63,477 nucleotides of DNA from Thermoanaerobaculia bacterium (GTDB lineage Bacteria > Acidobacteriota > Thermoanaerobaculia > Multivoradales > JAHEKO01). A program made the translations under genes and the position numbers. This document shows positions 9,487 through 54,456 of the stretch, piece by piece (position 1 is the stretch's first letter; each line of letters opens with the position of its first letter). The stretch covers positions 1-63,477 of the forward strand of contig JBHHWO010000005.1 of assembly GCA_046756565.1 (NCBI GenBank). Reading direction: 5' to 3'. Below the pieces are notes generated by a model. That model saw only the letters and a program-made list of their open reading frames with translations, did no database searches and was not told the DNA's origin.

Positions 9487-9654
9487 CTAGTGTCCTGTCC
9501 CAGTGATTCGCTACACAAATCTCGGGCCTTTCTGCACGCTGCCGGCGTTGCCACTCCTCAACATAGGCCCAGCTATGCTTGCGTCGTGGGCGCCTTGGCA
9601 GCGCACACCATGACCTCGAGCCTTATGCACCGAATCACTGGGACAGGACACTAG
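9487..9654. mobile_element. MITE-like element A, copy 1 (168 bp including CTAG ends)
   Basis: Perfect 24-bp terminal IR CTAGTGTCCTGTCCCAGTGATTCG. Identical to 50052-50219 except one base. No credible ORF. Confidence 0.88.
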
Positions 9655-9663
9655 ATTTCCGTC

Positions 9664-11010
9664 GTGCTGACGTTTGCGTCACTGCTACTCGGCCTCACCT
9701 TGGGAGTTCAGGGGATCGAGATCCTGGCCGAGGACGAAATCGTGTCGGTCGAGGTGTTCCTGGACGGAGCCAGCCAAGGGCGCCTGACCGACCGGCCGTA
9801 CCTGATCGAGTGCGACTTCGGCGAGGAGCTGGCGCCCCACGAGCTGGTGGCGGTCGGCTATGACGGAGAGGGCAAGCCGCTGGCTAGAGCCGTGCAGTGG
9901 ATCAATCTGCCGCGCCAGCCGGCAGAGATTACCGCGATCTTCGAGCAGGGCTCCGGGCCGTCGACCGGTCTCGTCGCGAGACTCCGATGGGCGGCCCTCG
10001 CAGAAACCGAGGCGCCGGTGGCGAGGGCGTGGTTCGACGGCGCCGAGCTGGTGGTCGAGAACCCCGAGTCGATCGTCTTGCCGAGCCACGATCCCGAGCA
10101 GCTCCACTTCTTTCGGGCCGAGCTCACCTTCCCCGGACGGGTGGTCTCGAGCTTCGAGGCGACGCTTGGTGGAACCTACGCGGAGAACGTGAGAACCGAG
10201 TTGACGGCGGTTCTGCTTCGGCTCGGCCGCAGGAAGGAGCCGAGCATCGCGGAGCTTCAGGGCGCACTGACCAAAGCTGGCGTCGCGCTCGACGTGGTCG
10301 CGGTCGACAAGCCGCCGGCCCAGATCGTGGTCGTCCGCGACCGGGCACTCGACGAGGAGTTCGCGATGCTCGAATCGCAGCGAAGCTTCGGCACCGCCCT
10401 GATGGGTCGTCTCGGGTCCCTGAGCCCGGTCGGCCCAAGCTACTCCAACGCGGCCACCCGCGTCGATCGCATCATGGCGAAGCACATGTCGGACTGGCGA
10501 CTCGAGTTCCTGTGGCCGGTGCCCGAGCGGCGCCTTGGGAGCGCCGGCCGCGAGTTCGATCTCTTTTCGCACTCGCCGGAGCTGGGGCCGGATGACGGCT
10601 CGCTCTACGCCTTTCTGACCCGGATCGACTTTCCGGCCCACCTCACCGGCCCCCAACGTCTGGCCGACAGCCTGGCGGTGGCCGGCCTGTCGGCGGCGGC
10701 CCTCGGAGGCCGCCGCACTGCGGTCTTGATTCTGGGCAGGGAGGCCGACGACGCCAGCGGATTGAGCGTCGATCTGGTGCGACGGTATCTTGGGCAGATC
10801 CAGGTGCCGCTCGAGGTCTGGACCACCGCCAAGAAGGGCGTCACATCCTGGGGCAAGGCCGACCGGATCCTGCCGAGGGCCCGCCTGGACTCCGAATGGC
10901 GGTCTCTGCTCGAGGATCTCAGCCGCCAGAGGATCACCTGGGTGCGCGGCAGTCATCTACCGCAATCGATCGAGCTGGCTCCGATCAAGGGCGTCGAACT
11001 GGTCCGTTAG
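9664..11010 (+). CDS. Hypothetical exported protein (possible Ig-like N-terminus and degenerate VWA-like C-terminus)
   Basis: Long ORF with hydrophobic N-terminus; TAGATT box 6 nt before GTG. Domain guess is weak. Confidence 0.55.
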   Translation: MLTFASLLLGLTLGVQGIEILAEDEIVSVEVFLDGASQGRLTDRPYLIECDFGEELAPHELVAVGYDGEGKPLARAVQWINLPRQPAEITAIFEQGSGPSTGLVARLRWAALAETEAPVARAWFDGAELVVENPESIVLPSHDPEQLHFFRAELTFPGRVVSSFEATLGGTYAENVRTELTAVLLRLGRRKEPSIAELQGALTKAGVALDVVAVDKPPAQIVVVRDRALDEEFAMLESQRSFGTALMGRLGSLSPVGPSYSNAATRVDRIMAKHMSDWRLEFLWPVPERRLGSAGREFDLFSHSPELGPDDGSLYAFLTRIDFPAHLTGPQRLADSLAVAGLSAAALGGRRTAVLILGREADDASGLSVDLVRRYLGQIQVPLEVWTTAKKGVTSWGKADRILPRARLDSEWRSLLEDLSRQRITWVRGSHLPQSIELAPIKGVELVR

Positions 11011-11014
11011 GCGG

Positions 11015-12298
11015 ATGAGCCGATTCCTCCTCCTCCTTGTCCTCGCGACCCTGGCCGGCGGCTCGCTGGCTCAGGACCAGCCGTCCGATGAGAGCCAGGG
11101 GACGACCGAGGAGATTCTCGGCAAGCGCTCGTCGATCTCGTTCGAGGCCGCTCCAGCCGAGGCTCTGGCCGTCGCGGCCGGCGCGCGGCTTCATGTCGAG
11201 CCCAAAGCCGAGTCGGCGGTCCTCGCGACCGTCCGCGTCGATCTCGAGCTCGAGGTCTTGAGCCGCGACGGTGACTGGGCCGAGGTGCGCTACCAGTCTT
11301 GGCAGGGCTGGGTGCTCGCGAGCCCGGAAGTCTCCAAACGCAGCCTTCTGGATCGGCGCGGCTGGGTGGTCGAAGTGGACGAGAGCGGCACGCGGCGTTT
11401 CGCCGAGGCGCCAACGTTTTCTCCCGAGCTCACCGCCCCGCGGCTCATGCGCCTGCGCGAGTTCCTCGCCGAAAATGAGCGCGTGCTCGAGCTCGGTTCC
11501 TACACCCTCTACACCGACGTTCGCAACGATTCGTGGCTCGAGAGCCTCATACCCACGGTGGCTGCTCTCGACGAGATCTACCGCACCCGCTTCGGGCTGG
11601 AGCTCGACGAGGCCGAGAAACAGTCGATCGTACTGTTCGCCCGCGAGGCGACCTACCGCGCCTACGAAAAGGAAGTTCCCGAGATCTCCAAGCTGGCCAC
11701 TCTCGGACACCAGAGTCACGGCGTCGCGGTGACCTTCGTCGGCAGCCGGAGCACCGATCAGATCCGAAGGATCCTCCTCCACGAGCTCACCCATCTGCTC
11801 AACCGCCGCGCTCTGCCTCTGGTACTACCGAGCTGGCTGGAAGAAGGTCTCGCCGAGGACCTGTCGTTCAGCCGGGTCGATGACAGCGGACGCATCCTGG
11901 CGGGGACCGTCACCGGCCGGCGGCAGCGAACCTTGACCGAAAGCCGGATCTCGGGCGGCTTCGCGTCACTTGCTACCTTGCTGCGCCGCTACCGCCGTCC
12001 GAGCTGGCCGCGCGTGACGACACTCGTAGACACCCACTGGGAGCGATTCGTCCAGCCCGGTGCACGCACCAGCTTCTATACCCAGGCCGCTTTCTTTCTG
12101 CGTTTCCTGATCGACGGGCGCGACGGTCTGCTGGCAGACGGCTTTCGCAAGTATCTACGACTGGTCGCCGAGGAGGGCCCGGAGCGGGCCGATCTCTGGA
12201 CCAGCCTGGACGCGCCCAAGGAAGACATCGAGAAGGCCTACGACATCTGGATCTGGAACCAGGGGCGCTTCTACGGAGCGGTGTCGGAGCGGCGGTAA
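11015..12298 (+). CDS. Exported SH3-domain, HEXXH zinc metallopeptidase-like protein (DUF1570/MA-like)
   Basis: Signal peptide; GDWAEVRYQSWQGWV (SH3b-like); HELTH followed by WLEEGLAE. Confidence 0.7.
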   Translation: MSRFLLLLVLATLAGGSLAQDQPSDESQGTTEEILGKRSSISFEAAPAEALAVAAGARLHVEPKAESAVLATVRVDLELEVLSRDGDWAEVRYQSWQGWVLASPEVSKRSLLDRRGWVVEVDESGTRRFAEAPTFSPELTAPRLMRLREFLAENERVLELGSYTLYTDVRNDSWLESLIPTVAALDEIYRTRFGLELDEAEKQSIVLFAREATYRAYEKEVPEISKLATLGHQSHGVAVTFVGSRSTDQIRRILLHELTHLLNRRALPLVLPSWLEEGLAEDLSFSRVDDSGRILAGTVTGRRQRTLTESRISGGFASLATLLRRYRRPSWPRVTTLVDTHWERFVQPGARTSFYTQAAFFLRFLIDGRDGLLADGFRKYLRLVAEEGPERADLWTSLDAPKEDIEKAYDIWIWNQGRFYGAVSERR

Positions 12299-12364
12299 CG
12301 CCGCGCGCAACGTACCCGGTCGAAGGGTTCCTTTCGGCACTGCATCTGATAAAAAAAGGATATC

Positions 12365-13168
12365 GTGAGCACGCTCGCCCCAGCCTCTACCGAAACCCTC
12401 ATCCACTCCACGGCTTCTATCGCGTCTACAGCCGAGCTCGGCGCGGGCGTGCGGATCGGCCCGTTCGCGGTGATCGAGGACCATGTAGTGATCGGGGCCG
12501 GGACCGTGGTGGACGCGCATGCGGTGATCCGGCCGTTCGTCAGGATGGGGGCCCGGAACCGCGTGCACACGAACGCCGTCCTGGGCGGCGAGCCGCAGCA
12601 CGTGGATTTCGCCGGCCAGGAGACCGGCCTCGTGATCGGAGACGACAATCAGTTTCGCGAGGCGGTCACCGTGCACCGGTCGATGAGTCCCGACGAGCCC
12701 ACCCGCATCGGCAGCCGCTGCATGCTCATGGTCAACGCCCACGTCGGACACGACTGCCACCTGGGCGACAGGGTGATCCTCACGAACGATGTCAACCTCG
12801 GCGGACACGTTACCGCCGGCGACGGTGTCCTAATGGGAGGTATGGCCCAGGTCCATCAGTTCGTCCGCGTCGGCACCTGCACGATGGTCTCGGGATCGAC
12901 GTCACTGGCGCGCGACGCGCTGCCCTACTCCTTCATGTGGGGAATCCTCGCCCGGCACTACCGGTTGAACACCATCGGTCTGCGCCGCAGCGGCATCAAG
13001 GGCGAGCGCTACAAGGCGCTCGAAAAAGCCTTCCGGGCGCTACGCAATGGCGACCCGATCGACGACCTCCCAGCGACGGAAGAGGTGTGTCACTTGAAAG
13101 AGTGGCTCGCCCTGCCGTCTAAGCGCGGTCTCGCCGGCTTCGCCAAGCGCGGCGAATCGGCGGAATAG
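12365..13168 (+). CDS. lpxA: Acyl-ACP--UDP-N-acetylglucosamine O-acyltransferase (LpxA family)
   Basis: Hexapeptide repeats; AHVGHDC, GHV, VHQFVR and LNTIGLRR motifs. Confidence 0.88.
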   Translation: MSTLAPASTETLIHSTASIASTAELGAGVRIGPFAVIEDHVVIGAGTVVDAHAVIRPFVRMGARNRVHTNAVLGGEPQHVDFAGQETGLVIGDDNQFREAVTVHRSMSPDEPTRIGSRCMLMVNAHVGHDCHLGDRVILTNDVNLGGHVTAGDGVLMGGMAQVHQFVRVGTCTMVSGSTSLARDALPYSFMWGILARHYRLNTIGLRRSGIKGERYKALEKAFRALRNGDPIDDLPATEEVCHLKEWLALPSKRGLAGFAKRGESAE

Positions 13169-13221
13169 GCCACACATCCGGGCGCTCCGAGGGCTGGTAG
13201 GCGTCTGTCGCCTCCTCGCCT

Positions 13222-13304
13222 TCATTCTGAGCTCAGCGAAGGATCTCGCCGTGCGATCCGTGCCAACCGACACTTCGGGATTCCTCGCATCCGCTCGGAA
13301 TGAC
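13222..13304. repeat. REP-like inverted pair
   Basis: TCATTCTGAGCTCAGCGAAGGATCT ... GGGATTCCTCGCATCCGCTCGGAATGAC, between convergent genes. Confidence 0.8.
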
Positions 13305-13335
13305 TCTGCGGATGGCTTCGCGACCCGCGGTGGAG

Positions 13336-13899
13336 CTACCAGGTCAGCATCAAGCCCAGCGCCCCCGCCGGACCGGCGAAGTCCGACTGGAAGTCGGCGG
13401 AGCCGAAGTCGTTGAAGGTGACCTCGAGCTTGGCACTCCGGTACATCGCTTCGGCGAAAAAGCCGAGCCGCTCGCCGACGGCGGCATCGAGACCCACCAC
13501 CGCGTAGTAGCCGAACTCGTCGTCGACCTCCGGTCCGCCGGCAAACGGCCTCAGCCCCCCCTCGAACTGGGCGTCGGCGAACACGAAGGAGCCGCCCAAC
13601 CCCAGGTAGGGCTGCGCTTTCCCGTTTTCATTGAAGTGCCAGGCCAGGCCGAGATCGACGGGAGTCGCCTCGAGGCGAAACAAAGCGCCGCTGGCGACCT
13701 GAGCGAACTCGTCGAAGAACGAGGCGCGAACCTCGAAGTCGAAGTTCTCGCCCACGTCCATGCCCAATCGAATCGTGAACCCCTCGTCGCTGTCTGCCTG
13801 TTCGGTGTCCCAGGTGGCGATGCCCACGCCGATTCCACCCGCCCAGGCCGGAACGGACATCAACAGAGCCAAACCGACGATGACTGCTAGCTTTTTCAT
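13336..13899 (-). CDS. Small outer-membrane beta-barrel protein (OmpW/OMP_b-brl-like)
   Basis: Signal peptide ending AWA; QPYLGLG; alternating beta-strand pattern; C-terminal Trp; GGGAGG RBS. Confidence 0.8.
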   Translation of the reverse strand: MKKLAVIVGLALLMSVPAWAGGIGVGIATWDTEQADSDEGFTIRLGMDVGENFDFEVRASFFDEFAQVASGALFRLEATPVDLGLAWHFNENGKAQPYLGLGGSFVFADAQFEGGLRPFAGGPEVDDEFGYYAVVGLDAAVGERLGFFAEAMYRSAKLEVTFNDFGSADFQSDFAGPAGALGLMLTW

Positions 13900-14133
13900 C
13901 TCAACCTCCCTTGGTTCCGTACGCGGATGTCCGGCTACGTCCAGCCAGGGGGTGTTTCCGGACCGATTCGTGCCTAACTATGCATCACCAATAGTACTTT
14001 ATGTCAAGGGCATGGGGGACACCTTTCCCATCACTCTTTGGAAACGGGCGTTGGCGGCGATCGGCAGGCCAATCCTTCAGGGGGACGGCTCGGGACGGCA
14101 GAAAGCGGGCCCAAGGCCCGCGCAGAGTCGGCG

Positions 14134-14997
14134 TCAAGCTCCTGGCAGGATGCCCCGAACCTCCGGGAACCTGTCGGCGATCTGGCGCGGGGTGAGCGAC
14201 GCCGGGTTCTTGCGCAGCAGCTTGAGGATCGACTTGGCCGCCTTGCCACTGCCCCGCTTGGAGATCAGCGCATCGGCGGCCCGGTAGTAGGCCCCTTCGG
14301 TGGCCAGACGGGAGCGCCACGTCGGCTCCCCGGTCGGGTCGGGATCCGCCTCGATCGAGTAGACCCTGCGGATGTCTCCAAGCGAGAGCGGCTCGTGGCG
14401 GTGTGATGCCGCCAGGGCCACCACATGTGCCGCCAGGTTGAGGACGTCCGGGTTCGCGCCCGAGTACCCGGCACGCTCGAGAAGCGCTCGGGCCGCGACT
14501 CCCTGCGCCAGAAGATCGGCGAGCAGCAGGCTCGAGGCCTCGGCCTTCGAGCCGTGCAGGGGATGCCCCTCGATCTGGGGAAGGCCGCCGCCGAGGAGCT
14601 GCTGCCAGAAGAGAACCGTCCGCTGATCGCCCCAGGCCGAAAGCGCAATCTCGCCATTCAACAGGCGCGCCGGCAATCCGTAGGGCACCGCCAGCTCGAG
14701 CGCCTCCCAATCGGTGCGGGACAGCAGCACAACCGAGAGCGGCACCGCTTCGCCGTACCATTTGGCGAAGTCCTCGGCCAGGAGCGCGAAGCGGAACTGG
14801 ACGTGGGATGCGCGGTCGAGCGCGCCGGGTGAATAGCGCACCAGCGCCCGCAGGTCGCCGACGTCGAGGAGATACGGAAGCGGCTTGGCCTGATTGCCCT
14901 GCGCGCGCGACGGCGGTTCGGCCGAAACCAAAACGAGCGTGGCCACCAGAGTGGCAATCGAGGCGAAGAGCGAGGCGAACCGCGGGCGTCGTTCCAC
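14134..14997 (-). CDS. Hypothetical exported protein
   Basis: 287-aa ORF with signal peptide; TAAACT box 6 nt before GTG. Confidence 0.6.
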   Translation of the reverse strand: MERRPRFASLFASIATLVATLVLVSAEPPSRAQGNQAKPLPYLLDVGDLRALVRYSPGALDRASHVQFRFALLAEDFAKWYGEAVPLSVVLLSRTDWEALELAVPYGLPARLLNGEIALSAWGDQRTVLFWQQLLGGGLPQIEGHPLHGSKAEASSLLLADLLAQGVAARALLERAGYSGANPDVLNLAAHVVALAASHRHEPLSLGDIRRVYSIEADPDPTGEPTWRSRLATEGAYYRAADALISKRGSGKAAKSILKLLRKNPASLTPRQIADRFPEVRGILPGA

Positions 14998-15024
14998 CGG
15001 CCGAGTTTAGCTAACATACGTTCC
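14998..15024. promoter_or_regulatory. Back-to-back -10 boxes of a divergent gene pair
   Basis: AGTTTA-GC-TAACAT: TAAACT (-) is 6 nt from GTG 14997 and TAACAT (+) is 7 nt from ATG 15025. No SD on either side. Confidence 0.6.
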
Positions 15025-16056
15025 ATGAAGGCCTTTCGGATCGAAAAACATGGCGGCCCCGAGGTCTTGCGGTGGGTCGATGAGCCGACACCCGAGCCGG
15101 CCGCCGACGAAGTCCTGGTCAGGGTGCGGGCCTGCGCCCTCAACCGTCTCGATCTCTGGGTCAGGAACGGCGTCGAGGGGCACAAGTTCCCGCTGCCACT
15201 GATTCCGGGATCGGAAGTGGCCGGCGAGATCGCGGCGGTTGGATCCGCGGTCGAGGGCCTCGAGGTCGGCGCCGACACCCTGGTGGCGCCGGGAGTGTCG
15301 TGCGGAGTCTGCGATCGCTGTGCCGACGGCGACGACATGCTCTGCTCGCGGTACGGCATTCTGGGGGAGCACCGCGACGGCGGCTACGCGGAGTACCTAA
15401 GCGTGCCCCGGCGCAACATTCTGCCGCTGCCGAAGGGTCTCACCCACGCCGAAGCGGCGGCGATCCCGCTGGTCTTTCTGACCGCCTGGCACATGCTCGC
15501 CGAGCGAGCCCGACTCCAGCCGCTGGAAGACATCCTCGTTCACGCCGCGGGTTCGGGCGTCTCGAGCGCGGGAATCCAGATCGCGAAGCTCCTGGGGGCT
15601 CGGCACATCTTCGCGACGGCTTCGAGCGAAGACAAGCTCGAGCGCGCCCGAGCGCTCGGGGCGACCCACACGATCGACTACACCAACGAGGATTTCGCCC
15701 AGGTCGTCCGCGAGGCCACCGGCGGCAAGGGCGTCGAGGTGGTTCTCGACCACGTCGGTGGCAGGACCTTCGAGGACAGCTTCAAGGCCATGGCCTGGGC
15801 CGGGCGGATCGTGATCTGTGGGTCGACGACCGACCATCTCGCCCGCATCAATCTGCGAGCCGTGTTCTACAAGAGCCTCTCCGTGCTGGGCTCGACGATG
15901 GGCCGGCAATCCGAGCTCCGGCACCTGTTGCGCTTCGTCGAAGGCGGCCAGCTGGCGCCGGTGATCGACCGCACTGTGCCGCTCGCGCACGCGCCCGAAG
16001 CCCAACGAATGCTCGAAGCGCGCGAGGTCTTCGGCAAGATCGTGCTCACAACTTAG
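15025..16056 (+). CDS. Zinc-binding alcohol dehydrogenase / quinone oxidoreductase (MDR)
   Basis: LNRLD, GSEVAG, CGVCDRC..C zinc site, AAGSGV nucleotide loop, GKIVL C-terminus. Confidence 0.9.
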   Translation: MKAFRIEKHGGPEVLRWVDEPTPEPAADEVLVRVRACALNRLDLWVRNGVEGHKFPLPLIPGSEVAGEIAAVGSAVEGLEVGADTLVAPGVSCGVCDRCADGDDMLCSRYGILGEHRDGGYAEYLSVPRRNILPLPKGLTHAEAAAIPLVFLTAWHMLAERARLQPLEDILVHAAGSGVSSAGIQIAKLLGARHIFATASSEDKLERARALGATHTIDYTNEDFAQVVREATGGKGVEVVLDHVGGRTFEDSFKAMAWAGRIVICGSTTDHLARINLRAVFYKSLSVLGSTMGRQSELRHLLRFVEGGQLAPVIDRTVPLAHAPEAQRMLEAREVFGKIVLTT

Positions 16057-26718: not shown

Positions 26719-27765
26719 ATGCGATTCGCCATCGACATCCTCCACCCGGCTCACGTTCACTTCTTTCGCAACTTCATCGGTGAGATGACCGGCCGCGGCC
26801 ACGAGTTCCTGGTCACGGTGCGCGAGAAGGAGTTCACGGGTGAGCTCCTCGATGGATACGGCATCGAGCATGTCTCGATCAGCAGACAGGCGCGTGGCAG
26901 CTTGGGCTTGGCCAAGGAGCTCGCGCTGCGGACCTGGAAGTTCCGCGGTCTGGCGAAGCGGTTCGGAGCCGACTTCCTGCTCGGCATCATGGGGCCCACG
27001 ATCGCACTGGCCGGCAAAACCCTGTCCTCCAAGACGGTGGTCTTCTATGACACCGAGATGGCCACGGTCACCAACTGGTTCGCCTACCCGCTCGCCGACG
27101 CGGTGGTGACGCCCACCTGCTACTCCGGCAAGGTTGGCGGCAATCACGTCACCTACTCCGGCTATCACGAACTCGCCTACCTGCACCCCGACCGCTTCAC
27201 CCCCGACCGCCGGGTGCTCGCAGACGCGGGGCTCGACGGCGAGCTGCCGATCTACGTGGTCCGTTTCGTCTCGTGGGAAGCGAGTCACGACATCGGCGAG
27301 AAGGGCTTCTCGATCGCTCAAAAGCGGCGGCTGATCGAGCTCTTGAGTACGCGTGGCCAGGTACTGCTGACGTCGGAAGGGCCGCTTCCGGAGGGACTCG
27401 AGAGCTACCGGTCCCGCGTGCCGATCGGGGACATCCATCATGCACTCGCGTGTGCGGATCTTCTGGTCGGCGAGAGCGCGACGATGGCTTCGGAGGCCGC
27501 GGTTCTGGGCACCCATGCCCTGTTCGTGTCAAAGACCGGCCGCGGCTACACCGACGAGCAGGAGCGCGACTACGGGCTGGTGCACAACTTCAGCGATGCC
27601 GAGGCCGAGAAAGCTCTCGCCGAGGTGGAGACTCTGCTGGCTCTCGGAGATCTCAAGGGAGATGCCAGCAGGAGAAGAGAGCGGCTGCTCGCGGACAAGA
27701 TCGACGTCACCGGTTGGATGGTGGACTACTTCGAGCGGGATGCGCGGAGCCCGCAGCGTTCATGA
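26719..27765 (+). CDS. DUF354 family protein (GT-B-like)
   Basis: HPAHVHFF, YHELAYLHP and GESATMASEAAVLG motifs. Confidence 0.85.
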   Translation: MRFAIDILHPAHVHFFRNFIGEMTGRGHEFLVTVREKEFTGELLDGYGIEHVSISRQARGSLGLAKELALRTWKFRGLAKRFGADFLLGIMGPTIALAGKTLSSKTVVFYDTEMATVTNWFAYPLADAVVTPTCYSGKVGGNHVTYSGYHELAYLHPDRFTPDRRVLADAGLDGELPIYVVRFVSWEASHDIGEKGFSIAQKRRLIELLSTRGQVLLTSEGPLPEGLESYRSRVPIGDIHHALACADLLVGESATMASEAAVLGTHALFVSKTGRGYTDEQERDYGLVHNFSDAEAEKALAEVETLLALGDLKGDASRRRERLLADKIDVTGWMVDYFERDARSPQRS

Positions 27766-27914
27766 CCGCTCGAGCAGATCGTCGAAAGCGTCCGTCGGAT
27801 CGGACCGAGCGGAGAGTCGAGCGACGCGGGCATACTTGCGGTATGTCGAGGAGCGAGACGCGAGTACCGGGCCGAGGCGACGGGCGATCTCGACTGGATG
27901 CCGAGCGGCCCATG
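27761..27914 (+). repeat. Long-hairpin intergenic element sharing the MITE core
   Basis: Nested stems CCGCTCG/CGAGCGG, GTCGA/TCGAC and CGTCCGTCG/CGACGGGCG; core CGACG..GCATAC-N5-GTATGTCGAGGAG..ACGC; bounded by CATG on both sides. Confidence 0.6.
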
Positions 27915-44200: not shown

Positions 44201-47200
44201 ACGGCGCGATCCGATGGTTCGCCCGCAACGGTGTGGCCGCCAACCTGTTGATGGTCTTCATCATCGTCACCGGCTTGATGACGGTCTTCGGCATCAAGCG
44301 GGAGGTTTTCCCTGAGTTCTCGATCGACATGATCACGATCGCGGTTCCCTACCCCGGCGCCGCGCCCGAAGAAGTCGAAGAGGGCGTCGTGGTCCGAGTC
44401 GAAGAGGCGATTCAGGATCTCGCCGGAATCGACGACATACGCTCCACCGCCTCGGAGAACGCCGCGGCGATCGTGGTCGAGGCCATGGACGGCGCCGACA
44501 TCGAGCGCCTTCTGAACGACATTAAGGCCCGCGTGGACGCGATCGACACGTTTCCCGATGAGGCCGAGGAGCCGATCATCGAAGAGGTCATTCGACGCAC
44601 CCAGGTCATCGAAGTGGCGGTCTCGGGCGATGCGGATGAGCGCTCGCTCAAGCGACTCGGCGAGCGCGTACGCGACGATCTTTCCAACCTGCCCGCGATT
44701 ACCCAGGTGGAGTTGGTTGCCGCTCGCGCCTACGAGATCTCGATCGAGGTCAGTGAGCAGGATCTTCGCAGTTACGGCCTGACCTTCGACGAGGTCGCGT
44801 CCGCGGTACGCCGGTACTCGCTCGATCTGCCCGGGGGCAGGATTCGCAGTCGCGACGGCGAGATTCTCCTGCGAACCGAGGGACAGGCGTACGACCGGGC
44901 CGAGTTCGCGCGCGTACCACGTCGCCAACGTGGTCGATGGCTTCGCCGACACCGATCTCTGGGCGCGATTCAATGGCCGCCCTGCGGTGGTCGTGCAGGT
45001 CTTCCGCGTCGGTGAGCAGAGCGCCCTCGAGGTGGCCGACGCGGTCAAGAGCTATGTCGCCGGCGCACGGCGGAGAATGCCCGAAGGGATCTTTCTCGAG
45101 ACCTGGCGGGACGAGACAGTGGTGCTGCGCGGCAGGCTCGAGCTGCTCACCAGGAACGGCCTCGCCGGCTTTGCTCTGGTGCTCCTGGTGCTGTCCTTGT
45201 TTCTGAAGCTGCGGTTGGCCGGCTGGGTGTCGGTCGGCATTCCAATCTCGTTTCTCGGCGCCGTGCTGTTCATGCCCGTGAACGACGTATCGCTCAATGT
45301 CATTTCCCTGTTCGCATTCATCGTCGTTCTCGGCATCGTCGTCGACGACGCCATCATCGTCGGCGAGAACATTTACACCGAGTACCAGTCCGGCCTCGAG
45401 GGCCTGGAGGCGGCGGAGGCCGGCGCTCTGGAAGTAGCCAAGCCGGTGGTCTTCGCCGTTCTGACCAGTGTCGCCGCCTTCTCTCCCCTCTTGGCGGTGT
45501 CGACCACCATGGGCAAGATCATGCGGGTGGTCCCGGTCATCGTGATCGCGACGCTCCTTTTCTCGCTCATCGAGTCGCTGTTCATTCTGCCCAACCATCT
45601 CTCCCATCTGAAGCACCCCAAGCCCGGGGAAGACCGGGAGCGGGGTCCCTGGAGCCGCCTCCAGCGCCGCCTGAGCACCGGGCTCGAGAGGCTGATCGAG
45701 ACAACCTACCGGCCGACTCTCAAGTGGGCTATTCGCTGGCGCTACGCGACCGTGGCGATCGGTGTCGCCGGGCTGATCGTGACCTTCGCGGTGGTCCGAG
45801 GCGGATGGGTCAAGTTCAGCTTCTTTCCGGACGTCGAGGCCGACAACACGGCGGCGATGCTGACCATGCCACAGGGAACTCCGGCCGAGGTCACCGCCGA
45901 CGGCGTCGAGCGGCTCGAGGCCGCGGCGCTCGAGCTCGCCGCCGAGATCGAAAACGAGACCGGAGACCGGGCGATCCGCCACGTACTATCCTCGGTGGGC
46001 GATCAACCCTACCGGGCCGCTCAGAACCGCGGTGTGACAGGCAGCGCGAGCTTCGATGCTCCTCACCTCGGAGAGGTCACACTCGAGCTGCAGCCAGCGG
46101 AGGAGCGATCGATCTCATCGACCGAGATCGCCGACCGCTGGCGCGGCAAAGTCGGTGAGATCCCGGACGTGGTCGAGCTGACCTACAGCTCGTCGATCTT
46201 CAGCTCGGGCGACGCCATCAACGTCGAGCTCTTCGGCCCCGATCTCGGCCATCTGACCGAGGTGGCACGAACACTCAAGGGCGAGCTGGCGGCTTACCCC
46301 GGCGTTCGCGACATCGCCGATTCGTTTCGAGCCGGCAAGCGGGAGATAGAACTCGAGCTCACTCGCGAGGCGGAACTCGCGGGCCTGAGCCAGGTCGACC
46401 TGGCTCGGCAGGTGCGTCAGGCGTTTTACGGCGAAGAGGCCCAACGCATCCAGCGTGGCCGCGATGACGTCAAGGTGATGGTCCGCTACCCCGAGGGAGA
46501 CCGCAAGTCGCTCGCGGATCTCGAGTTGATGAGGATTCGCAACCCCGAGGGAGCGGAGGTGCCACTGGCGTCGGCGGCGAGGACCAGCATGAGCCGCGGG
46601 CCGGCCGCGATCAACCGCACCAATCGCAACCGGGTCGTCAACGTGACCGCGGACGTCGACGCGGAGATCGCGAATGCCAACGAGATCATCGCCGACCTCG
46701 ACAACCGGGTGCTGCCGGGCGTTCTCGCGGACTACCCCGAGATCCGCTTCTCCTTCGAAGGCGAGCAGGAAGAGCAGCGCCAGACCATGCAGGATCTTTT
46801 TCGCGGCTTCGCAGTCGCGCTCCTGGTGATCTACGGCCTCCTGGCGATTCCGTTTCGCTCCTACCTGCAGCCACTCATCGTGATGAGCGCGATTCCGTTC
46901 GGACTGATCGGAGCAGTCTGGGGACACGTGCTGATGGGATTGGATCTGGCGATCCTCTCGATGTTCGGCATCGTTGCCCTTACCGGGGTGGTGGTCAACG
47001 ACAGCCTGGTGCTGGTCGCCTTCATCAACCGATCGACCCGCCGCGGCTCGACTCTGCGCGAAGCCATCGAGCACGCCGGCGTCGCTCGATTCCGGCCGAT
47101 TCTCTTGACCTCTCTCACCACCTTCGCCGGGCTGACGCCGCTGCTGCTCGAGAAGAGCATGCAGGCGCAGTTCTTGATCCCGATGGCTGTTTCGTTGGCT

Positions 47201-47341
47201 TTCGGTGTGCTGTTTGCTACATTTATTACGCTCATTCTCGTTCCGGCCCTGTACTCGATCGTCGAGGACGTACGCGAGGGTCTTTCCAGGTTCGTCTCGG
47301 CGGACCGCGAGGCGGGCGACGCACGGGAGGTCACCGCGTAG
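44197..47341 (+). pseudogene. RND (AcrB/D/F family) permease split by an apparent internal deletion/frameshift near 44917-44921
   Basis: The N-terminal part (NGVAANLLM...AEFARVP) and the C-terminal part (VANVVDGF...GIVVDDAIIVGEN...RFRPILLTSLTT) are in different frames. Span of 3145 nt is not a multiple of 3. Confidence 0.8.
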
Positions 47342-47360
47342 CGAGCGAGGCACGACGATC

Positions 47361-48764
47361 ATGGAGATCCAGGGAAGACGAGCGACCGACGCCCTCCGGG
47401 CTGTCGACGGCGTGGTCGATTCGTACCTGCGGCACAGCAACCTGGGTGGCCGACGGATCGCCAACCTGGCGGCGACCATCGCGATCGAAAACTCCGGAGC
47501 CGGCTGGGGCTCGCTGCTTCTGAACGACGGCGAGGGCCTCAACCCCACGCTGGCGATTCAAGACGATCTCACCGCCGCGGACGCGGTCTTCGAAGGTGAT
47601 GACGAGACCTATCTGCGTCGCGCCGAGGACACAGCCGAGCTGGTGGTCGCTGAGGGACGCATCGCCGCCCCGATCGTCCTCGACGGCCGGGTCAAAGGCG
47701 TCCTCTACCTGCGCAACTTCGACCAGCCGCCGAGCGAAGCGGTTCAGAAGCTAGCCAACAGCGTCGCCACGCGTATCGCGAGCCTGCTCAAGAACGCCGA
47801 GCTGCTCGAGGCTCTGGATCGAACCAAGGACGACATCCACGCGCTGGCCCAGTTGAGCGAGAGCTTCGCCGCCGGCCAACTGGGCAGCGATCAGCTCGAA
47901 GAGACCGTCATCAGAGCGACCAGTGGCACCCGCAGCGACGGTGGCGTGATCGGCCTGTTCTCCAGGGAAGGACGACTCGACGAGCGCTTCACGACCGGAT
48001 TCGACGGCCAAGGCTTGATCGACGAGCTGCTTTCGGGAGAGGTCACACCGGAGGACCTGTCGATCGTCGAGAGTGGCCTGCCGGGGTCCGTGATCTTCGA
48101 GCCGCTCTCGCCGGACGTGCTCCACCGGCGCTCGAAGGGCAAGGCCGGAGGGTTTCTCGCGGTCTACCGGGATGTCTCAGTGCCTTACCGTCTGTCGGAG
48201 GGCTCCTTCATTCGCGCAATCGCCAACCTGCTCTCCGGTGCGCTGGCGCGCCGGGACTATTTCCGCCAGGCTTCCGAGGACGCGCTGACCTCCACCGGAT
48301 CGCGGTTCGCGCTTCAACTCGAGCTGGCCGAGGCGGAGGCGCGCAGCCTGAAGACCGGTCTGCCGTTCACCATCCTGCTCGCCGACATCGACCAGTTCAA
48401 GGAGATCAACGACGACTACGGCCACTTGGTCGGGGACGAGGTCTTGAAAGACGTTGCCGAAGTTCTCCGTTGCCGTCTCCGGTCTCTCGACTCGGTTTCA
48501 CGCTACGGCGGCGACGAGTTCGTCGTGCTGTTGCCGGACACGCGCCTGGAGCCCGCGACCGGGTTGGCGCAGGAGCTTCGCGAGTTGGTGGAGGCGAAGA
48601 GCTTCGCAGCGCTCGCCGACTCGGTCACGATCTCGATGGGAGTCGCCGAATACGGCACCGGACACACCGCGGCCGAGACGCTGCGGCGAGCAGACCTCGC
48701 GCTCTACCAGTCCAAGCAGCAGGGCAGGAACCGGGTCACCCAGTACAGCAGCGATTTGGAATGA
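47361..48764 (+). CDS. Diguanylate cyclase with GAF-like sensor region
   Basis: [24 protein letters not shown]-site, RYGGDEF and GRNR motifs. Confidence 0.9.
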
Positions 48765-49555
48765 GGCCCTATCTCGAACTTCTCGAGCGTATTCTCGAAG
48801 AGGGCACGGACCGACCCGACAGGACAGGCACCGGTACCCGCAGTGTGTTCGGACACCAGATGCGTTTCGCGCTCGAAGACGGTTTCCCACTGCTGACGAC
48901 CAAGAAGCTCCACCTGCGATCCATCGTCCACGAGTTGCTTTGGTTTGTTCGGGGCGACACCAATATCGCGTACCTCAGAGACAACGGCGTCAAGATCTGG
49001 GACGCCTGGGCGGACGCCGACGGCGAGCTCGGCCCCGTGTACGGCGCCCAATGGCGCTCGTGGCGCACCGCCGAGGGCGGCACCGTCGACCAGATCGAGA
49101 GGCTCGTCCACGACCTGCGCGAGAATCCCGACTCGCGCCGCCATATCGTGAGCGCGTGGAACGTCGGCGAGATCGACAAGATGGCGCTGCCTCCCTGCCA
49201 TGCGCTGTTTCAGTTCTACGTCGCCGAGGGTCGCCTTTCGTGCCAGCTCTACCAGCGTAGCGCCGACGTCTTCCTGGGCGTGCCGTTCAACATCGCGTCA
49301 TACGCGCTGCTGACGTTGATGATCGCCCGCACTGTCGAGCTGGAGCCCGGGGACCTCGTCCTCACCCTGGGCGACGCCCACCTCTACTTCAACCACTTCG
49401 ACCAGGCGCGAGCTCAGCTGGCGCGCGAGCCACGAGCCAGACCGGTCATGCGGCTCAACCCCGAAGTACGATCGGTTTTCGACTTCACCTACGAAGACTT
49501 CACTCTCGAGGACTACGATCCCCATCCCCACATCAAGGCGCCGATCTCGGTTTGA
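48761..49555 (+). CDS. thyA: Thymidylate synthase
   Basis: DRTGTG, LGPVYG, SRR, LPPCH and [18 protein letters not shown] motifs; 264 aa. Confidence 0.98.
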
Positions 49556-50055
49556 GGCTGTCGATCATCGTCGCGGTCGCCGAGAACGGCGTCATCGGCA
49601 GGGACAATCGAATCCCGTGGCGGCTTTCGGCCGATCTCAAGCGCTTCCGGTCGCTCACCACGGGACATTATCTGCTCATGGGTCGCTCGACCTTCGAGTC
49701 GATTGGCCGGCCACTTCCCGGGCGGACCACGATCGTCCTGAGTCGCGGAACGCCGGAGCTGCCCGGGAGCGTCCTACTCGCCGGAAGCCTGCCGGAAGCC
49801 GTGGCGATGGCGAAAGAGTCCGGGGAGACCGAGGCCTTCGTGGCCGGGGGGGCTGCGATCTACCGGGAAGCGCTGACGATCGCCGATCTCCTCTATCTCA
49901 CCCGCGTGGCCGGCGACTACGAAGGCGATACGTTCTTCCCGGATTGGTCCAAGAAGGGCTGGAATCTGTTCGCGATCGAGACGTGCCCTCACAAAGAAGG
50001 CGAGCCGGCTGCGGTATTCGAGGTTTGGAGACGACGTCGGGGACACCTATCCTAG
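49552..50055 (+). CDS. folA: Dihydrofolate reductase
   Basis: [33 protein letters not shown] and GDTFFP motifs. Confidence 0.96.
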
Positions 50056-50219
50056 TGTCCTGTCCCAGTGATTCGCTACACAAATCTCGGGCCTTTCTGC
50101 ACGCTGCCGGCGTTGCCACTCCTCAACATAGGCCCAGCTATGCTTGCGTCGTGGGCGCCTTGGCAGCGCACACCATGACCTCGAGCCTTATGCACCGAAC
50201 CACTGGGACAGGACACTAG
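50052..50219. mobile_element. MITE-like element A, copy 2
   Basis: Matches 9487-9654 at 167/168 positions. Left CTAG contains the folA stop codon. Confidence 0.88.
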
Positions 50220-50243
50220 GTGTCCCCTCCCGACCTGGTGCGA

Positions 50244-51323
50244 TCAGAATCCGCGCCGCACCGCCCAATGCAGCGTCAGGTCCGGCCCGTTCTCGAAATG
50301 CGCGACGTTCTCGGTCACGGCCGCGGTCATCCCGTACTTGCCGAGCCGCCATTGGAGGCCACCCGAGAGCTGCCAGATCTCGGAGTGCAGATCCTCGATC
50401 CGGATCCCGTCGAGGGGCGAGCCGGCGATCATCAACTGGACCACCCAGGAGACGCGGCGCCAACGCCGCTCCCAACCGGCGTAGATCCCGGGAATGAGGC
50501 GCTCGCCGAGTCCGAGGAGCTTCCACTCGCCCAGGTAGCGGAGGTTGAGGGCCGCGAAGCGGCAGCTGCGCCGTTTGCACCTCGAGACCTGTGCCTGTCC
50601 CGCGACGTCCACCGAGCCGCTGCTCCCGAATCGCTCGTCGTCGCCGAGTGGCAGCTTGATTGCGGCATCCCAGATCAGACGTCGCTCGTTCTTCGCGAGC
50701 CGTCGCTGTCCGCGGATGGCAAGCAGCGGGTCCGCCAGATCCAGGGACTGCTTCGGGTCCCGCAAGAGGTCGCCCTCCTCGAGCTGCAGGAAGACCGCCC
50801 GCTGGTCCTTGGGCACTCCGAGGCGCCCGTCCTGGTCGAACCCGGCGACGTCGTGGAACTCCTCCAAGAGTCCGTCCATCCACCCACCCTGGATCTCCAG
50901 GAACGGCAGCCGCACCTCGAGCTCGAGACCGTTCCCGAGTCCACGCCGTAATCGCAGCTCGGTGCGCAGGGACTCCCCGTCGATGAAGAAAAGCGGCTCG
51001 CCGTTCTCGCTTTCGCGCTCGACGCGAGCCAGAAACTCCGGGGTCACGGGCAGGCGCTCGGTGCGAGCCTCGAGCGCGCGCTGCACCGACTCCGAACGCG
51101 CAAAGGTGTTGGCCATCGAGACCATCACCTCGGCCTGCCAGGAGCCGGCCTCGAGCAGATCCAGCGGCAACGGCTCGACGGGCATGGCTCCGCCGGTAAG
51201 GAGAAACTGATCCGAAAGCCGGAGCGGCCCGGTGAACTCGAAATCCTCCGCCGCCGGGGCTCGGGACGCAAAGACCAGGACCAGCCCCACCAGGCACGCG
51301 AACCGGGTCGCCGACTTCCTCAC
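50244..51323 (-). CDS. Putative outer-membrane protein (DUF3187-like)
   Basis: Signal peptide; GGWMDGLLEEFHD..G, KLPLGD..FGSSG and terminal Phe. Start uncertain. Confidence 0.65.
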   Translation of the reverse strand: MRKSATRFACLVGLVLVFASRAPAAEDFEFTGPLRLSDQFLLTGGAMPVEPLPLDLLEAGSWQAEVMVSMANTFARSESVQRALEARTERLPVTPEFLARVERESENGEPLFFIDGESLRTELRLRRGLGNGLELEVRLPFLEIQGGWMDGLLEEFHDVAGFDQDGRLGVPKDQRAVFLQLEEGDLLRDPKQSLDLADPLLAIRGQRRLAKNERRLIWDAAIKLPLGDDERFGSSGSVDVAGQAQVSRCKRRSCRFAALNLRYLGEWKLLGLGERLIPGIYAGWERRWRRVSWVVQLMIAGSPLDGIRIEDLHSEIWQLSGGLQWRLGKYGMTAAVTENVAHFENGPDLTLHWAVRRGF

Positions 51324-51330
51324 GACCTGG

Positions 51331-51828
51331 TCAGCTGCCGGCGGACCTAAGATGCTCCAGCACCGCCTCGGCACTAGAAACGCCGATCTCGCGTCCGGGC
51401 TCGACGCCTAGATACTCGACCACTCCGTCGCGCACCACGGCTGCGTAGCGACGGCTTCTGACCCCGAGTCCGATAGCCGATAGATCGAGCGCCAGGCCCA
51501 AGCCGTCGGCGAGCTCGCCGTTGCCGTCCGCCAGGAAGCTCACGCACTCCGCAGCCCCGCGGTCGCGACCCCACGCATCCATCACGAAGGCGTCGTTGAC
51601 TGCGACGCATGCGAGCTCGTCGACGCCGGCTTCGCGCAAGGCATCCGCAGAGGCCAGGAACCCCGGCAGGTGGACGTCCGAACACGCCGGCGTGAAGGCG
51701 CCCGGGACCGCAAAGAGCACCACTGTCCTAGCGGCGAAGAACTCGAGGGTCGAGACCGGCTCCACGCCTTCCGCGGTCTTCCGCCTCAGCGTCACGTCCG
51801 GAATCGAGCTGCCTGTCGCGAAAGTCAT
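51331..51828 (-). CDS. Peroxiredoxin, Prx5 type
   Basis: PGAFTPACS..HLPG, VNDAFVM.AW and RSRRY motifs. AGGAG RBS. Confidence 0.93.
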   Translation of the reverse strand: MTFATGSSIPDVTLRRKTAEGVEPVSTLEFFAARTVVLFAVPGAFTPACSDVHLPGFLASADALREAGVDELACVAVNDAFVMDAWGRDRGAAECVSFLADGNGELADGLGLALDLSAIGLGVRSRRYAAVVRDGVVEYLGVEPGREIGVSSAEAVLEHLRSAGS

Positions 51829-51910
51829 CCACTCTCCTGTTTCCAGGCCGCAGAGTGTATACGAGATGGTTTCGGGCTCGGTTCGGGGCCGGAGCGGATA
51901 AAATGTCCCG

Positions 51911-52966
51911 GTGAGAGAACTAGAGCATCTCATTCAGTCCTGGGACGGTATCGGCGTCCTGACGCGGTACGACGAGCCCACGGGTACCTGGATCTTCATC
52001 TGCATTCACGACAACTCCCTGGGAGCCGCGACCGGAGGCACGCGGATCCGGACCTACCCCACGCCTGCCGACGCACTTCGTGACGGCATGCGGCTGGCCG
52101 AGGGAATGACCCACAAGTGGGCGGCTGTGGATCTCGGCTTCGGCGGAGCCAAGGCGGTGCTGGCTGTGCCCGGCCCGATCGCCGGCGACGAGCGGCGCGG
52201 GCTGCTTCAGCGCTACGCCGGCCTGATCGAGATCCTGGGTGGCTCCTTCCTGACCGGCGAGGACATGGGCATCACGTCGGAGGACATGGAGTTCATATCC
52301 CGGCACACGAGCTATCTTCACGGCTTCGATGAGCACGGCAAGAAGGTGGACCCGAGCCCGTTTACGGCGCGCGGGGTCGTCACCGGAATCAAGGCCTCGC
52401 TCGCCCATCGCTACGGTGACGACTCGATCTCCGGCAAACGCGTGCTCGTCCAGGGTACAGGCAACGTCGGTGGACACCTCGTGCGGATGCTGGCCGAAGA
52501 GGGCGCCGAGATTCTGGTCGAGGACATCGACCGCGACCGAGCCCAGAGCCTCGCCGACGAGGTCGGCGCCCGAGTGATCGACAACGGCGACACCTACTCG
52601 ACCGAATGCGATGTCTTTGCGCCGTGCGCGATCGGAGCGATCCTCAACCAGGACACGATTCCGAAACTCGCCTGCCCGATCGTCGCCGGCTCGGCCAACA
52701 ACCAGCTGGCCGAGCATGACGACGTCGAGCGGCTGCGCGAGCGCGGCATCCTGTACGCGCCCGACTACATCGTCAACGCCGGCGGCGCCATCTCCTTCGC
52801 CCACATCGGCCGCGGGATCACCGCCCGCGATCGCCTGTTCGAGAAGGTCGACTCGATCGGATCGACGCTCGCCGAGATCCTCGCCGAAGCCGACGAGCGC
52901 GGCGAATCTTCTCTGGATGCCGCCGACCGCCGGGTGGCTCGGGTTCTGGCGCGCGCGCGGGCCTGA
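51911..52966 (+). CDS. Leu/Phe/Val dehydrogenase
   Basis: GGTR, GMTHK, GGAK, GEDMG, QGTGNVG, GSANNQL and PDYIVNAGG motifs. Confidence 0.92.
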   Translation: MRELEHLIQSWDGIGVLTRYDEPTGTWIFICIHDNSLGAATGGTRIRTYPTPADALRDGMRLAEGMTHKWAAVDLGFGGAKAVLAVPGPIAGDERRGLLQRYAGLIEILGGSFLTGEDMGITSEDMEFISRHTSYLHGFDEHGKKVDPSPFTARGVVTGIKASLAHRYGDDSISGKRVLVQGTGNVGGHLVRMLAEEGAEILVEDIDRDRAQSLADEVGARVIDNGDTYSTECDVFAPCAIGAILNQDTIPKLACPIVAGSANNQLAEHDDVERLRERGILYAPDYIVNAGGAISFAHIGRGITARDRLFEKVDSIGSTLAEILAEADERGESSLDAADRRVARVLARARA

Positions 52967-52982
52967 TCCCTCTCGTTTCGGC

Positions 52983-53008
52983 GGGATTTCTCGCTCCGCT
53001 CGGAATGA
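52983..53008. repeat. REP-like arm (same family as 1362)
   Basis: GGGATTTCTCGCTCCGCTCGGAATGA. Confidence 0.7.
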
Positions 53009-53205
53009 TCCGTTGTTGCGGCCTAGCTCTGTCTGGGCCGTCTCCGCCTCGAAGTGCGAAACACTGTCGGCTCGGAGACCCAGCGTTTCAGATCAGGGCG
53101 CCCAATCCGGGTCCGCTCCAGCGAAGAAAATCGTGTCGATCCATGGCACACATGCGCCCGATACTACCCAATCCCGAGGTCTCTCCAGCCACGTATAGTC
53201 CGGGC

Positions 53206-54294
53206 ATGAAGGGGTCGGCGACCAGGTGCGCGGAGCTGTTATGCGCGGGCGTGATCGGGCTCCTTTGGGTCGGCTGCCTGCCCAAGTCACACACGGCGTT
53301 CCGGCTCCAGCCTCGCGGGCCGGAACCGCCTGGGGCCGCTGCCCTCCGGAGCGAAATCCTCGAGAGCCGTCCGCACGCGGCCGAGACGATCGATCACTGG
53401 ATTCGCGAGGCGGGCGGATACGCGGAGCACCGGCTCTCGTTCGCTTCGATCGGCTACAACGCGCAGCACCAGAATCTCGTCGAAGCGACCTACTTCGAGC
53501 GGCGCACTCCGGGCCGGAAGGCCCTGGTGATCATTCTGCCGATCTGGGGCAGCTCCTCGTACCCCGGTCGCGCTCTCCTGCGCCAACTTCGCCGAGACGA
53601 CGCAGTCGGAGACATGAGTTTTCTGCTCATTCACGGGCGCGAGTACCTTTTCGACTGGGAGGGAATGGCTCGGGCCTCTTCCGAGGCCGCGCTTCGCGGA
53701 ACGCTCGCGACCTCGGTGGAAGCGATGCTCAACTCGATTCAGGACGCTCGCCGGCTCTTGACTTGGGCGGTCGAGCGGCCCGAGGTGGATCCAAGCCGCA
53801 TCGCGATCGCGGGCTTCAGCTCTGGCGCGATCGTCGCGGCGATCACGATGGGGGTCGACCGGAGGATCGGAACCGGCGTGTTCGTCATGGGCGGGGCCGA
53901 CCCTCACGAGATCTTCTCGACCTGCTCGAGCCATGCCCGCACGAGCAGGGAGGCAGTCCGCCGCAACCTGGGATGGTCGCTCGACCAGTTCAGGGCGACG
54001 CTCGAAGGACCGCTCTCGGCCATCAACCCCCGGCATTACGTCTCGTCGATCGATCCGGCCAATGTCCTGGTGGTCGAGGCCTCGGCCGACCGTTGCATCG
54101 GCGACAATCCCAGGCGCGAATTCTGGACCGCTCTCGGCCGGCCCGAGAAGATCTCGGTACTGGGCGGCCATCGCCACTCCTTCCTCTCGATGACACCGCT
54201 CGGCCGTCACTGGACGACCCGCCGGATCTCCGAGTTCTTGCGGCGAAAGCTCGCCGCGCGCCCGATGGACTCCGTGCCGATCGCGGCCCGCTAG
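53206..54294 (+). CDS. Alpha/beta hydrolase, probable lipoprotein
   Basis: GFSSG nucleophile elbow, D in ADRC, GGH; VGC lipobox-like; TATAGT 6 nt before ATG 53206. Confidence 0.75.
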   Translation: MKGSATRCAELLCAGVIGLLWVGCLPKSHTAFRLQPRGPEPPGAAALRSEILESRPHAAETIDHWIREAGGYAEHRLSFASIGYNAQHQNLVEATYFERRTPGRKALVIILPIWGSSSYPGRALLRQLRRDDAVGDMSFLLIHGREYLFDWEGMARASSEAALRGTLATSVEAMLNSIQDARRLLTWAVERPEVDPSRIAIAGFSSGAIVAAITMGVDRRIGTGVFVMGGADPHEIFSTCSSHARTSREAVRRNLGWSLDQFRATLEGPLSAINPRHYVSSIDPANVLVVEASADRCIGDNPRREFWTALGRPEKISVLGGHRHSFLSMTPLGRHWTTRRISEFLRRKLAARPMDSVPIAAR

Positions 54295-54456
54295 TGTCCC
54301 GTGCGGTAAGTTCGTTGCCACACCGAGAGCGGTGAAGCGTGCGCTGGGCAAGGCGCGACGACTGAGAATATCGGGCATATTCGACAGAGGAGCAACGCCG
54401 CCCAGCGGAATGCAGCACCGCTCGAATGTAAAGGAACTTGCCGCACGGGACACTAG
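54291..54456. mobile_element. MITE-like element B (166 bp), divergent relative of element A in opposite orientation
   Basis: 23-bp terminal IR CTAGTGTCCCGTGCGG(T/C)AAGTTC with one mismatch. Each CTAG contains the stop codon of a flanking convergent gene. Confidence 0.85.

Follow-up and report, generated by a model that had tools for sequence, protein, structure and literature searches.

What are the four short intergenic elements scattered through a 63,477-nucleotide stretch of a Thermoanaerobaculia genome, and why do they carry one structured core between different ends? The stretch, referred to here as the window, comprises positions 1 to 63,477 of contig JBHHWO010000005.1 (assembly GCA_046756565.1); the genome, G000 in our collection, holds 4.8 Mb in 324 contigs, with 65% G+C and 99.68% completeness. 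A first-pass annotation of the window had quoted motifs for four such elements, and all four proved to be in place. We found that their core is a hairpin that forms on one strand only and whose fold appears to be under selection. In the explanation that we favor, and hold as a whole to be somewhat likelier right than wrong, the elements belong to a large cross-phylum superfamily of type II MITEs (miniature transposable elements with inverted repeats), foldbacks of ~165-280 bp, in which the folded single strand would be recognized by a protein and would be kept for the persistence or mobility of the element.

Two of the four elements are copies of one family, A, on the minus strand. Copy 1 (9487-9654) is 168 bp long, has CTAG at both ends and terminal inverted repeats of ~24 nt, and is flanked by divergent open reading frames (ORFs). 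Copy 2 (50052-50219) is 98% identical to it over 174 nt, and the ORF upstream of it stops at the left terminal TAG of the element. The structured cores of the two copies, at 9535-9606 and 50100-50171 (both minus strand), each score 64.8 bits with our covariance model (E = 2.5e-14). The single member of family B (54291-54456, plus strand) measures 166 bp and has long terminal inverted repeats as in A; its core (54340-54408, plus strand, 29.2 bits, E = 4e-5) is compact, with an extra CUG:CAG helix beneath the apical stem. The fourth element, of type C (plus strand), is an older and diverged MITE-like foldback that stands in sense orientation between co-directional neighbors. Its bounds, ~27745-27907, were set by similarity to copies in this genome and in a second one, G004; its core (27798-27876, plus strand, 31.3 bits, E = 1.2e-5), with the core blocks at 27822-27861, keeps the upper module alone (GC / GACGCG / stem / GAGGA / GC), under which lies another tandem G.A. 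At the orthologous locus of the C element in four congeners, the flanks could not be aligned at the DNA level. All four elements are intergenic by a crude gene call based on third-position G+C content (GC3), and they are the sole significant matches of the covariance model in the window, the next best having E = 0.09.

Read on the strand that carries the purine loops, A, B, and C have in common the blocks AAGGCG, CGACG, an apical stem, GAGGAG, and (C)AACGC; the stems vary and stay complementary. On the minus strand of A these blocks read AAGGCG / CGACG / 6-bp stem / GAGGAG / CAACGC. The fixed internal blocks of the first-pass annotation are therefore present in all three types, with C restricted to the upper module, and its further remark that A and B are alike only at their outermost tips also holds: the tips have only CTAGTGTCC in common, and C has other ends. 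The A core begins with an outer helix, an AA bulge, a GGCG:CGCC helix, a CAA bulge, and a CCAC:GUGG helix; above these a purine loop, GA/GA - C:G - G(C)A/GA, leads into a 7-bp apical stem. The general fold follows the same plan. An outer helix, often with tandem G.A (for example, GCAGAUGC self-pairing), gives way inward to an A-rich 5' bulge, the GGCG:CGCC helix, a 3' CAA bulge, and a variable helix. Beyond these lies an internal loop whose C:G pair stands between GA/GA and G(C)A/GA, and then an apical stem of 6-7 bp that contains a G.U pair and ends in a variable loop.

Do the stems change in a compensatory manner, as the first-pass annotation claimed from the four elements? We fitted both alignments to the structure of the model, and the rows in each are related; this inflates the pairing counts and is a point against our reading. 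Among 48 distinct variants from this genome, paired cells make up 86.9% of the total, against 68.5% after shuffling, with 23/26 pairs changing on both sides and slid controls pairing at 22-46%. Among 56 distinct rows from other genomes, a set whose search held the apical helix constant, 84.5% of cells pair against 62.3%, with 22/26 pairs changing on both sides and slid controls at 24-45%. In neither set did any of 500 shuffles reach the observed pairing. The alignment is also asymmetric between strands. G.U cells number 92 and A.C cells 14, and there are 108 G.A plus G.G cells against 23 pyrimidine-pyrimidine cells; the purine strand gives the better fold in 46/48 and in 44/48 elements, by a margin of 7-9 kcal/mol. 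Unpaired bases are kept as well (G42 in 45/47 rows, A44 in 43/47, G85 in 46/48, A86 in 45/48, G88 in 45/47, A89 in 45/48). The three positions of the CAA bulge are kept in 33/43 (C106), 39/41, and 37/40 rows in this genome and in 40/46, 42/45, and 45/45 in other phyla. With the exception of C106, the unpaired G, A, and CAA positions are retained in 36-46 of 40-48 rows while the adjacent helices turn over. The fold forms on one strand only, with covarying helices, conserved G.U, tandem G.A mismatches, and conserved A-rich bulges. Collectively, these data support the earlier proposal that selection acts on a strand-specific fold.

What are the carriers of this core? A 1.2-kb element elsewhere in the genome (contig C123, 1184-2381) has a left end that equals A in its first 24 nt. 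That element encodes a 365-aa protein with a DDE_3 domain (E = 4.4e-25) and a helix-turn-helix (HTH), which identifies it as an IS630-family insertion sequence (IS). The tips of B, and those of a further family, E, which has six copies in this genome with other terminal repeats and the same core, match IS630-family ISs in the related genomes G016 and G007 over 16-19 nt, and these sources likewise encode DDE_3 and HTH proteins. The transposases of the three IS lineages that match the A, B, and E ends are 39-52% identical. The second DDE_3 gene of this genome (contig C174) had no recognizable terminal repeats. The A, B, and E elements, at 166-168 bp and nearly identical within each family, have no coding capacity, and their interior is unrelated to the matching ISs. 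Searched with the covariance model, none of 16 IS loci had the core inside the IS: all matches lay outside the IS ends, and in two loci (L231 and L241) a match adjoins an end, the IS end in L231 abutting a terminal repeat of a fourth family, F. Because the terminal repeats are shared with ISs and the core is absent from them, A, B, and E fit the definition of type II MITEs, which in the relevant text of PMC10969869 are elements that share only terminal repeats with an IS. The first-pass annotation had placed the module in non-autonomous carriers with different ends, and families A, B, and E, with terminal repeats matching three IS630 lineages, agree with this; that the carriers are type II MITEs of the IS630 kind, and that the module is spread across phyla, goes beyond it.

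The families are numerous in this genome. Family A is present in 42 complete 168-bp copies (2 sequence variants) and family B in 31 complete 166-bp copies (5 variants), all gathered with a search pattern that includes CTAG, and many more copies are truncated by contig ends. In three metagenome runs, A and B were covered ~30-60 times as deeply as their flanks, and a contig of a sister sample lacks the A copy at 50052; copy numbers, depth, and this absence all speak for mobility. Family F, 276 bp long, contributes 116 terminal repeats, most of them ~50 nt from contig ends; viewed from the contigs, ~100 contig ends have an F-family terminal repeat at about that distance. F, A, and B elements probably account for much of the fragmentation of the assembly. 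The older C family has copies in this genome and at least 7 in G004, at 72-74% identity. Core-bearing families have burst to 40-130 copies in several genomes. In this one, 25 core-bearing elements lie between convergent genes and 6 between divergent genes.

Do the ends tell how the elements insert? In the copies collected by the CTAG-containing pattern, the A and B ends read CTAG, with no longer duplication in the flanks. The CTAG ends of A, B, and E are consistent with duplication of TA in a CTAG target, a duplication that we infer from the family, given that no empty site was clean and that a 4-nt repeat borders the only missing copy. The terminal TAG serves as the stop codon of a gene-like ORF in 31/75 A and B copies; for comparison, 650/3354 CTAG sites do so genome-wide. 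These 3354 sites in 4.8 Mb are about one fifth of the number expected from base composition. The B element at 54291-54456 lies exactly between two convergent ORFs and its two terminal TAGs are their stop codons, which implies a former overlap of these genes in one CTAG. Elements also abut end to end with one common CTAG, and full-length IS630 copies stand directly against MITE ends (C105:11399-11728, C15:39872-40037, and C110:15322-15534 in this genome; L231, around 2072). With every insertion the target is created anew.

How widely is the core distributed? A hand-written descriptor gave 121 matches of 42 distinct kinds in this genome and 15 in the reversed genome. The first-pass annotation had suggested a covariance-model search of this genome and beyond, and a model built from eight variants (R1) detected the core in both. 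It returned at least 101 matches at E<=1 in this genome, ~45 of them distinct, with 150 of 2182 candidates scored; most are foldbacks of 150-200 nt with ends of their own, often CTAG. R1 matched 30/41 genomes of the order, a count that takes in this genome and the unpublished G006, at 0 to >100 copies each. At least 120 loci of metagenome-assembled genomes (MAGs) from about eight phyla by label contain the exact 22-base core motif, GCAGGCGTAC-N4-7-GTACGTCGAGGA; 80 of these loci were looked at, and the apical stem is constant in them by construction of the search. The labels are Deltaproteobacteria/Myxococcota, Acidobacteriota, Phycisphaeraceae, Nitrospira, Spirochaetaceae, Sporomusaceae/Carboxydocellales, Gammaproteobacteria, and Aegiribacteria. 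One locus with the motif (L093) comes from a bin labeled Thorarchaeota, most simply a bacterial contaminant of that bin. The genome G001 alone has ~129 copies of a 186-bp core-bearing element. A blastn search of a plasmid collection with a 189-nt element gave no match, and the exact motif had 0 matches in viral contigs.

Could the core be a member of a known family? Rfam 15 returned 0 matches in the window at the gathering score, 0 on A at E<=10, and none at E<=1 when 16 loci of other genomes were queried. A MIR1437 match on B (29.8 bits against a cut-off of 168) was set aside as a generic long hairpin. Full-text searches of the literature for the core and terminal-repeat strings found only primers and unrelated papers, and keyword searches found no description. 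Judged by Rfam and the full-text literature alone, the core appears to lack a catalogued family, in keeping with the first-pass annotation, which could assign none; the direct Rfam match that it had named as counter-evidence did not occur. A kink-turn has a 3-nt bulge followed directly by tandem sheared G.A on the bulged strand. By eye, the tandem GA of the core has Watson-Crick pairs on both sides and its CAA bulge is followed by CG, not GA, and we rejected this candidate. Sarcin-ricin-loop, ops/JUMPstart, hairpin-ribozyme, and CsrA-site consensus sequences, also compared by eye, were dropped too, with matching letters in covarying stems or the wrong spacing. The tiers of the core are not relics of older nested terminal repeats either, as the arms beside the putative inner CTAG are not inverted repeats. 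In integrons, attC sites fold strand-specifically as a single strand, with conserved unpaired bases and variable paired sequence; they stand in cassette arrays beside an integrase and have R and L boxes. Our elements, by contrast, are dispersed and have terminal inverted repeats, which argues against attC.

Among the nearest known relatives are the type II MITEs of IS630/Tc1-mariner type, with RUP, Nezha, MITEEc1/ERIC, and Correia-like elements as named comparisons. Like ours, these are short and non-coding, have terminal repeats in common with an IS630-family IS and TA/CTAG ends, form long hairpins, and occur in many near-identical copies, mostly at gene ends. In our elements, however, the internal body and not the ends is the conserved part, and one strand-specific purine-loop core spans several terminal-repeat families and many phyla. 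One of them, MITEEc1_IS630, is named in 10.1101/2024.01.18.576219. Repetitive extragenic palindromes (REPs) and REPINs resemble our elements in being dispersed and extragenic, mostly downstream of genes, and in pairing into larger hairpins (PMC3733652). The same review considers that REPs act as RNA or single-stranded DNA (ssDNA) and describes them as 20-40 bp long, with a GTAG or CGTC head beside an 8-9-bp stem and without terminal inverted repeats (Di Nocera et al. 2013, PMC3733652). Compared by eye with that description, the core has CGCA/GACGCA and no GTAG/CGTC head 5' of its 6-7-bp stem, and the foldback measures at least 165 bp. A search for Y1_Tnp (PF01797) gave 0 matches in this 99.68%-complete genome while the controls matched. 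We therefore rejected REPIN/RAYT for this genome on the lack of a Y1_Tnp gene and of a GTAG/CGTC head.

A second short palindromic repeat in the window, unrelated to the core, is REP-like (GATTC..CGCTGCGCTCAGAATGA-like, 24-36 nt). It occurs at 1356-1465 (three tandem units), 7714-7744, 9382-9412, and 52978-53008, and inverted at 13214-13248; A copy 1 has one of these repeats 75 nt upstream.

Among published candidates, the 'mobile/repeat sequence candidate' class of Narunsky et al. 2024 (PMC11109978), as its text presents it, is the nearest match that we found. Its member MRSC-65-2 is, like our core, a single long stem with strong covariation, present in dozens of copies per genome and in many phyla and sometimes near transposases, and its authors are unsure whether it acts as RNA or DNA (PMC11109978). 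The hallmark given in that text is a repeated UYCCGG (PMC11109978). On the folding strand this string was absent from 47/48 cross-phylum elements and from 48/48 variants of this genome; on the complement of the cross-phylum set it was absent from 41/48 and present once in 7/48. MRSC-65-2 is set apart by this hallmark as the text describes it, and another motif of the same paper might equal the core.

Taken together, these findings suggest the following course of events. IS630-family (DDE_3) transposases supplied in trans would mobilize A, B, and E, whose terminal repeats would derive from three different IS630 lineages; this anatomy, and mobilization by transposases of the IS630 type, are well supported. 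The 70-90-nt hairpin core would be the heritable body of the element, which has repeatedly acquired new terminal repeats. Its folded single strand would offer a recognition platform for a protein, and the core would be kept since it helps the element persist or be mobilized. We regard the elements as MITEs with a portable structured core, and we infer the role of that core.

Apart from the inflated pairing counts, several results weigh against this explanation. DDE_3 was found in 13/41 genomes, as against 30/41 for the core. G023, which is 99% complete, has 31 core copies and zero DDE_3 genes, and many core-rich genomes are like it. Certain core-bearing families end in CTCAG or lack CTAG, so that IS630 may not move all of them; the compact elements L222 and L221 of genome G035 have CTCAG...CTCAG ends, which hint at a different target or at a non-IS630 transposase family. 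In the sister-sample contig (run X2) that lacks the A copy at 50052, position 50062 runs directly on into 50228, and this junction is bounded by a 4-nt repeat and not by TA, with no clean empty site seen; the A-less allele could be a slippage deletion or an old footprint. The right flank at this junction resembles a terminal repeat. Orientation relative to genes is no more favorable: between co-directional neighbors, the folding strand is sense in 15 cases and antisense in 29 in this genome, and sense in 13 and antisense in 11 in G016 and G023. In G035, where the burst is recent, a test for strand bias by two-breakpoint partition found none (47/70, reached by 348/1000 shuffles). With the dnaA origin as anchor and the terminus opposite, the bias in G016 and G023 was modest (39/63, p 0.08), and the reading of orientation below assumes that negative skew marks the lagging strand in this lineage.

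A search for a protein-coding parent of the ~129-copy element in G001 found none: six lone ends were examined, all belonged to ordinary 186-bp copies, and there was no DDE_3. The same genome, that of locus L060, holds fourteen Y1_Tnp-like ORFs, most of 230-300 aa, alongside these elements.

Does the orientation of the folding strand on the chromosome reveal what the core is for? The best two-breakpoint strand partition placed 26/32 copies in G016 (reached by 111/5000 shuffles) and 25/31 in G023 (264/5000). Across these two genomes the folding strand lay on the strand of negative GC skew in 41/60 copies (p 0.006), and in 23/32 when only copies between convergent or divergent genes were counted. 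In G035, GC skew along contig C5 is noisy and the strand pattern is not significant. In our own genome, the old singletons had the folding strand on the negative-skew strand in 25/32 cases (p 0.002), and the young families in 19/33 (A) and 15/25 (B). It is suggestive only, but in older copies the folding strand tends to be the negative-skew, presumed lagging, strand, as survivorship would have it if copies whose well-folding strand is the lagging-strand template were lost faster. Reportedly, the work of Trinh and Sinden on asymmetric palindromes found deletion through lagging-strand hairpins, which the survivorship reading matches. The asymmetry of the fold may accordingly have effects in DNA as well. 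The lack of a sense preference does not fit a 3'-untranslated-region (3'-UTR) RNA selected for the benefit of the host; beyond this, orientation does not decide the purpose of the core.

In what form, then, might the core act? ERIC, Correia, and REP elements are reported to act as RNA processing, stability, or termination modules at gene ends, and by analogy the core might be a transcribed RNA of this kind, which is a preference of ours rather than a finding and one to which we give slightly less than an even chance. To a role in ssDNA or in tuning transposition, the two counted jointly, we would assign a somewhat smaller share. Were the core to act in ssDNA, as REPIN/RAYT, IS200/IS605 ends, and integron attC sites do, it would be a foldback signal in replication-coupled mobilization or the target of an ssDNA enzyme. 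Its strand-specific fold tolerates G.T and sheared G.A, which are both stable in DNA; its orientation tracks GC skew even where there is no net direction of transcription (23/32, and 25/32 for the old copies) and shows no preference for sense relative to genes. Nevertheless, the lack of Y1_Tnp in this 99.68%-complete genome, terminal inverted repeats of a type belonging to DDE elements, which act on double-stranded DNA, and the weakness of the bias when anchored on dnaA all speak against such a signal. The well-folding strand is, moreover, mostly the least template-exposed one (the presumed leading-strand template), the opposite of IS200/IS605, and we consider action in ssDNA unlikely. Decidedly unlikely, in our estimate, is a cis-acting tuner of transposition, which would make a better short substrate for Tc1/mariner-type transposases by, for example, drawing the two ends together or binding a host bending factor. 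There is precedent in Stowaway MITEs, whose internal sequence raises activity with mariner-like transposases, and in the central IHF site of Correia elements. Such a tuner would explain why the core was retained at each acquisition of new terminal repeats and stays constant while these change, selection on a selfish element bears mainly on its mobilization, and the bursts to 40-130 copies point the same way; bending or cruciform extrusion of double-stranded DNA, however, gives no reason for purine-rich mismatches on one side.

The core might also have no function at all, having descended from one old MITE whose complementarity is maintained by hairpin-templated repair and which spread by horizontal transfer. 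MITEs are foldbacks by construction, the rows of our alignments are related and fitted to the structure, and the cross-phylum set was picked by an exact motif. Templated correction, however, would erase asymmetric loops, whereas 36-46 of 40-48 rows (33/43 for C106) retain the GCA/GA and GA loops and the AA and CAA bulges, next to helices that change on both sides. The mismatches are strongly one-sided (92 against 14), and deamination of an exposed strand would, by our reasoning, place G.U on the positive-skew strand, contrary to observation. We rate descent without function as very improbable. A bolder proposal, which we advance tentatively and think doubtful, is that the portable 70-90-nt module with its stacked G.A and A-bulge motifs represents an undescribed class of structured nucleic acid that extends across phyla and either is bound by a conserved protein or is itself active. 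Several IS630 lineages would then have captured the core repeatedly since it makes a miniature element succeed, and its asymmetry would favor a strong fold in RNA or in one DNA strand and a weak one on the strand exposed at the replication fork.

Returning to MITEs with a portable core, the explanation that we prefer, what does it mean for such elements? Definitions of MITEs usually rest on the ends, and what lies between is regarded as junk; in our elements it is the interior that is conserved and covarying, and common to several types of terminal repeat and to several phyla. Core-bearing elements probably also lie behind much of the fragmentation seen in this MAG assembly and in related ones. 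The age-dependent bias in orientation, if it holds, would be a natural, genome-scale counterpart of the classic experiments on lagging-strand hairpin deletion in asymmetric palindromes. If the core has a role, it would be a new structured motif of RNA or ssDNA, widespread and offering natural variants by the thousand for analysis, or, alternatively, a natural 'tuning' cassette for mobilization of the Tc1/mariner type in bacteria.

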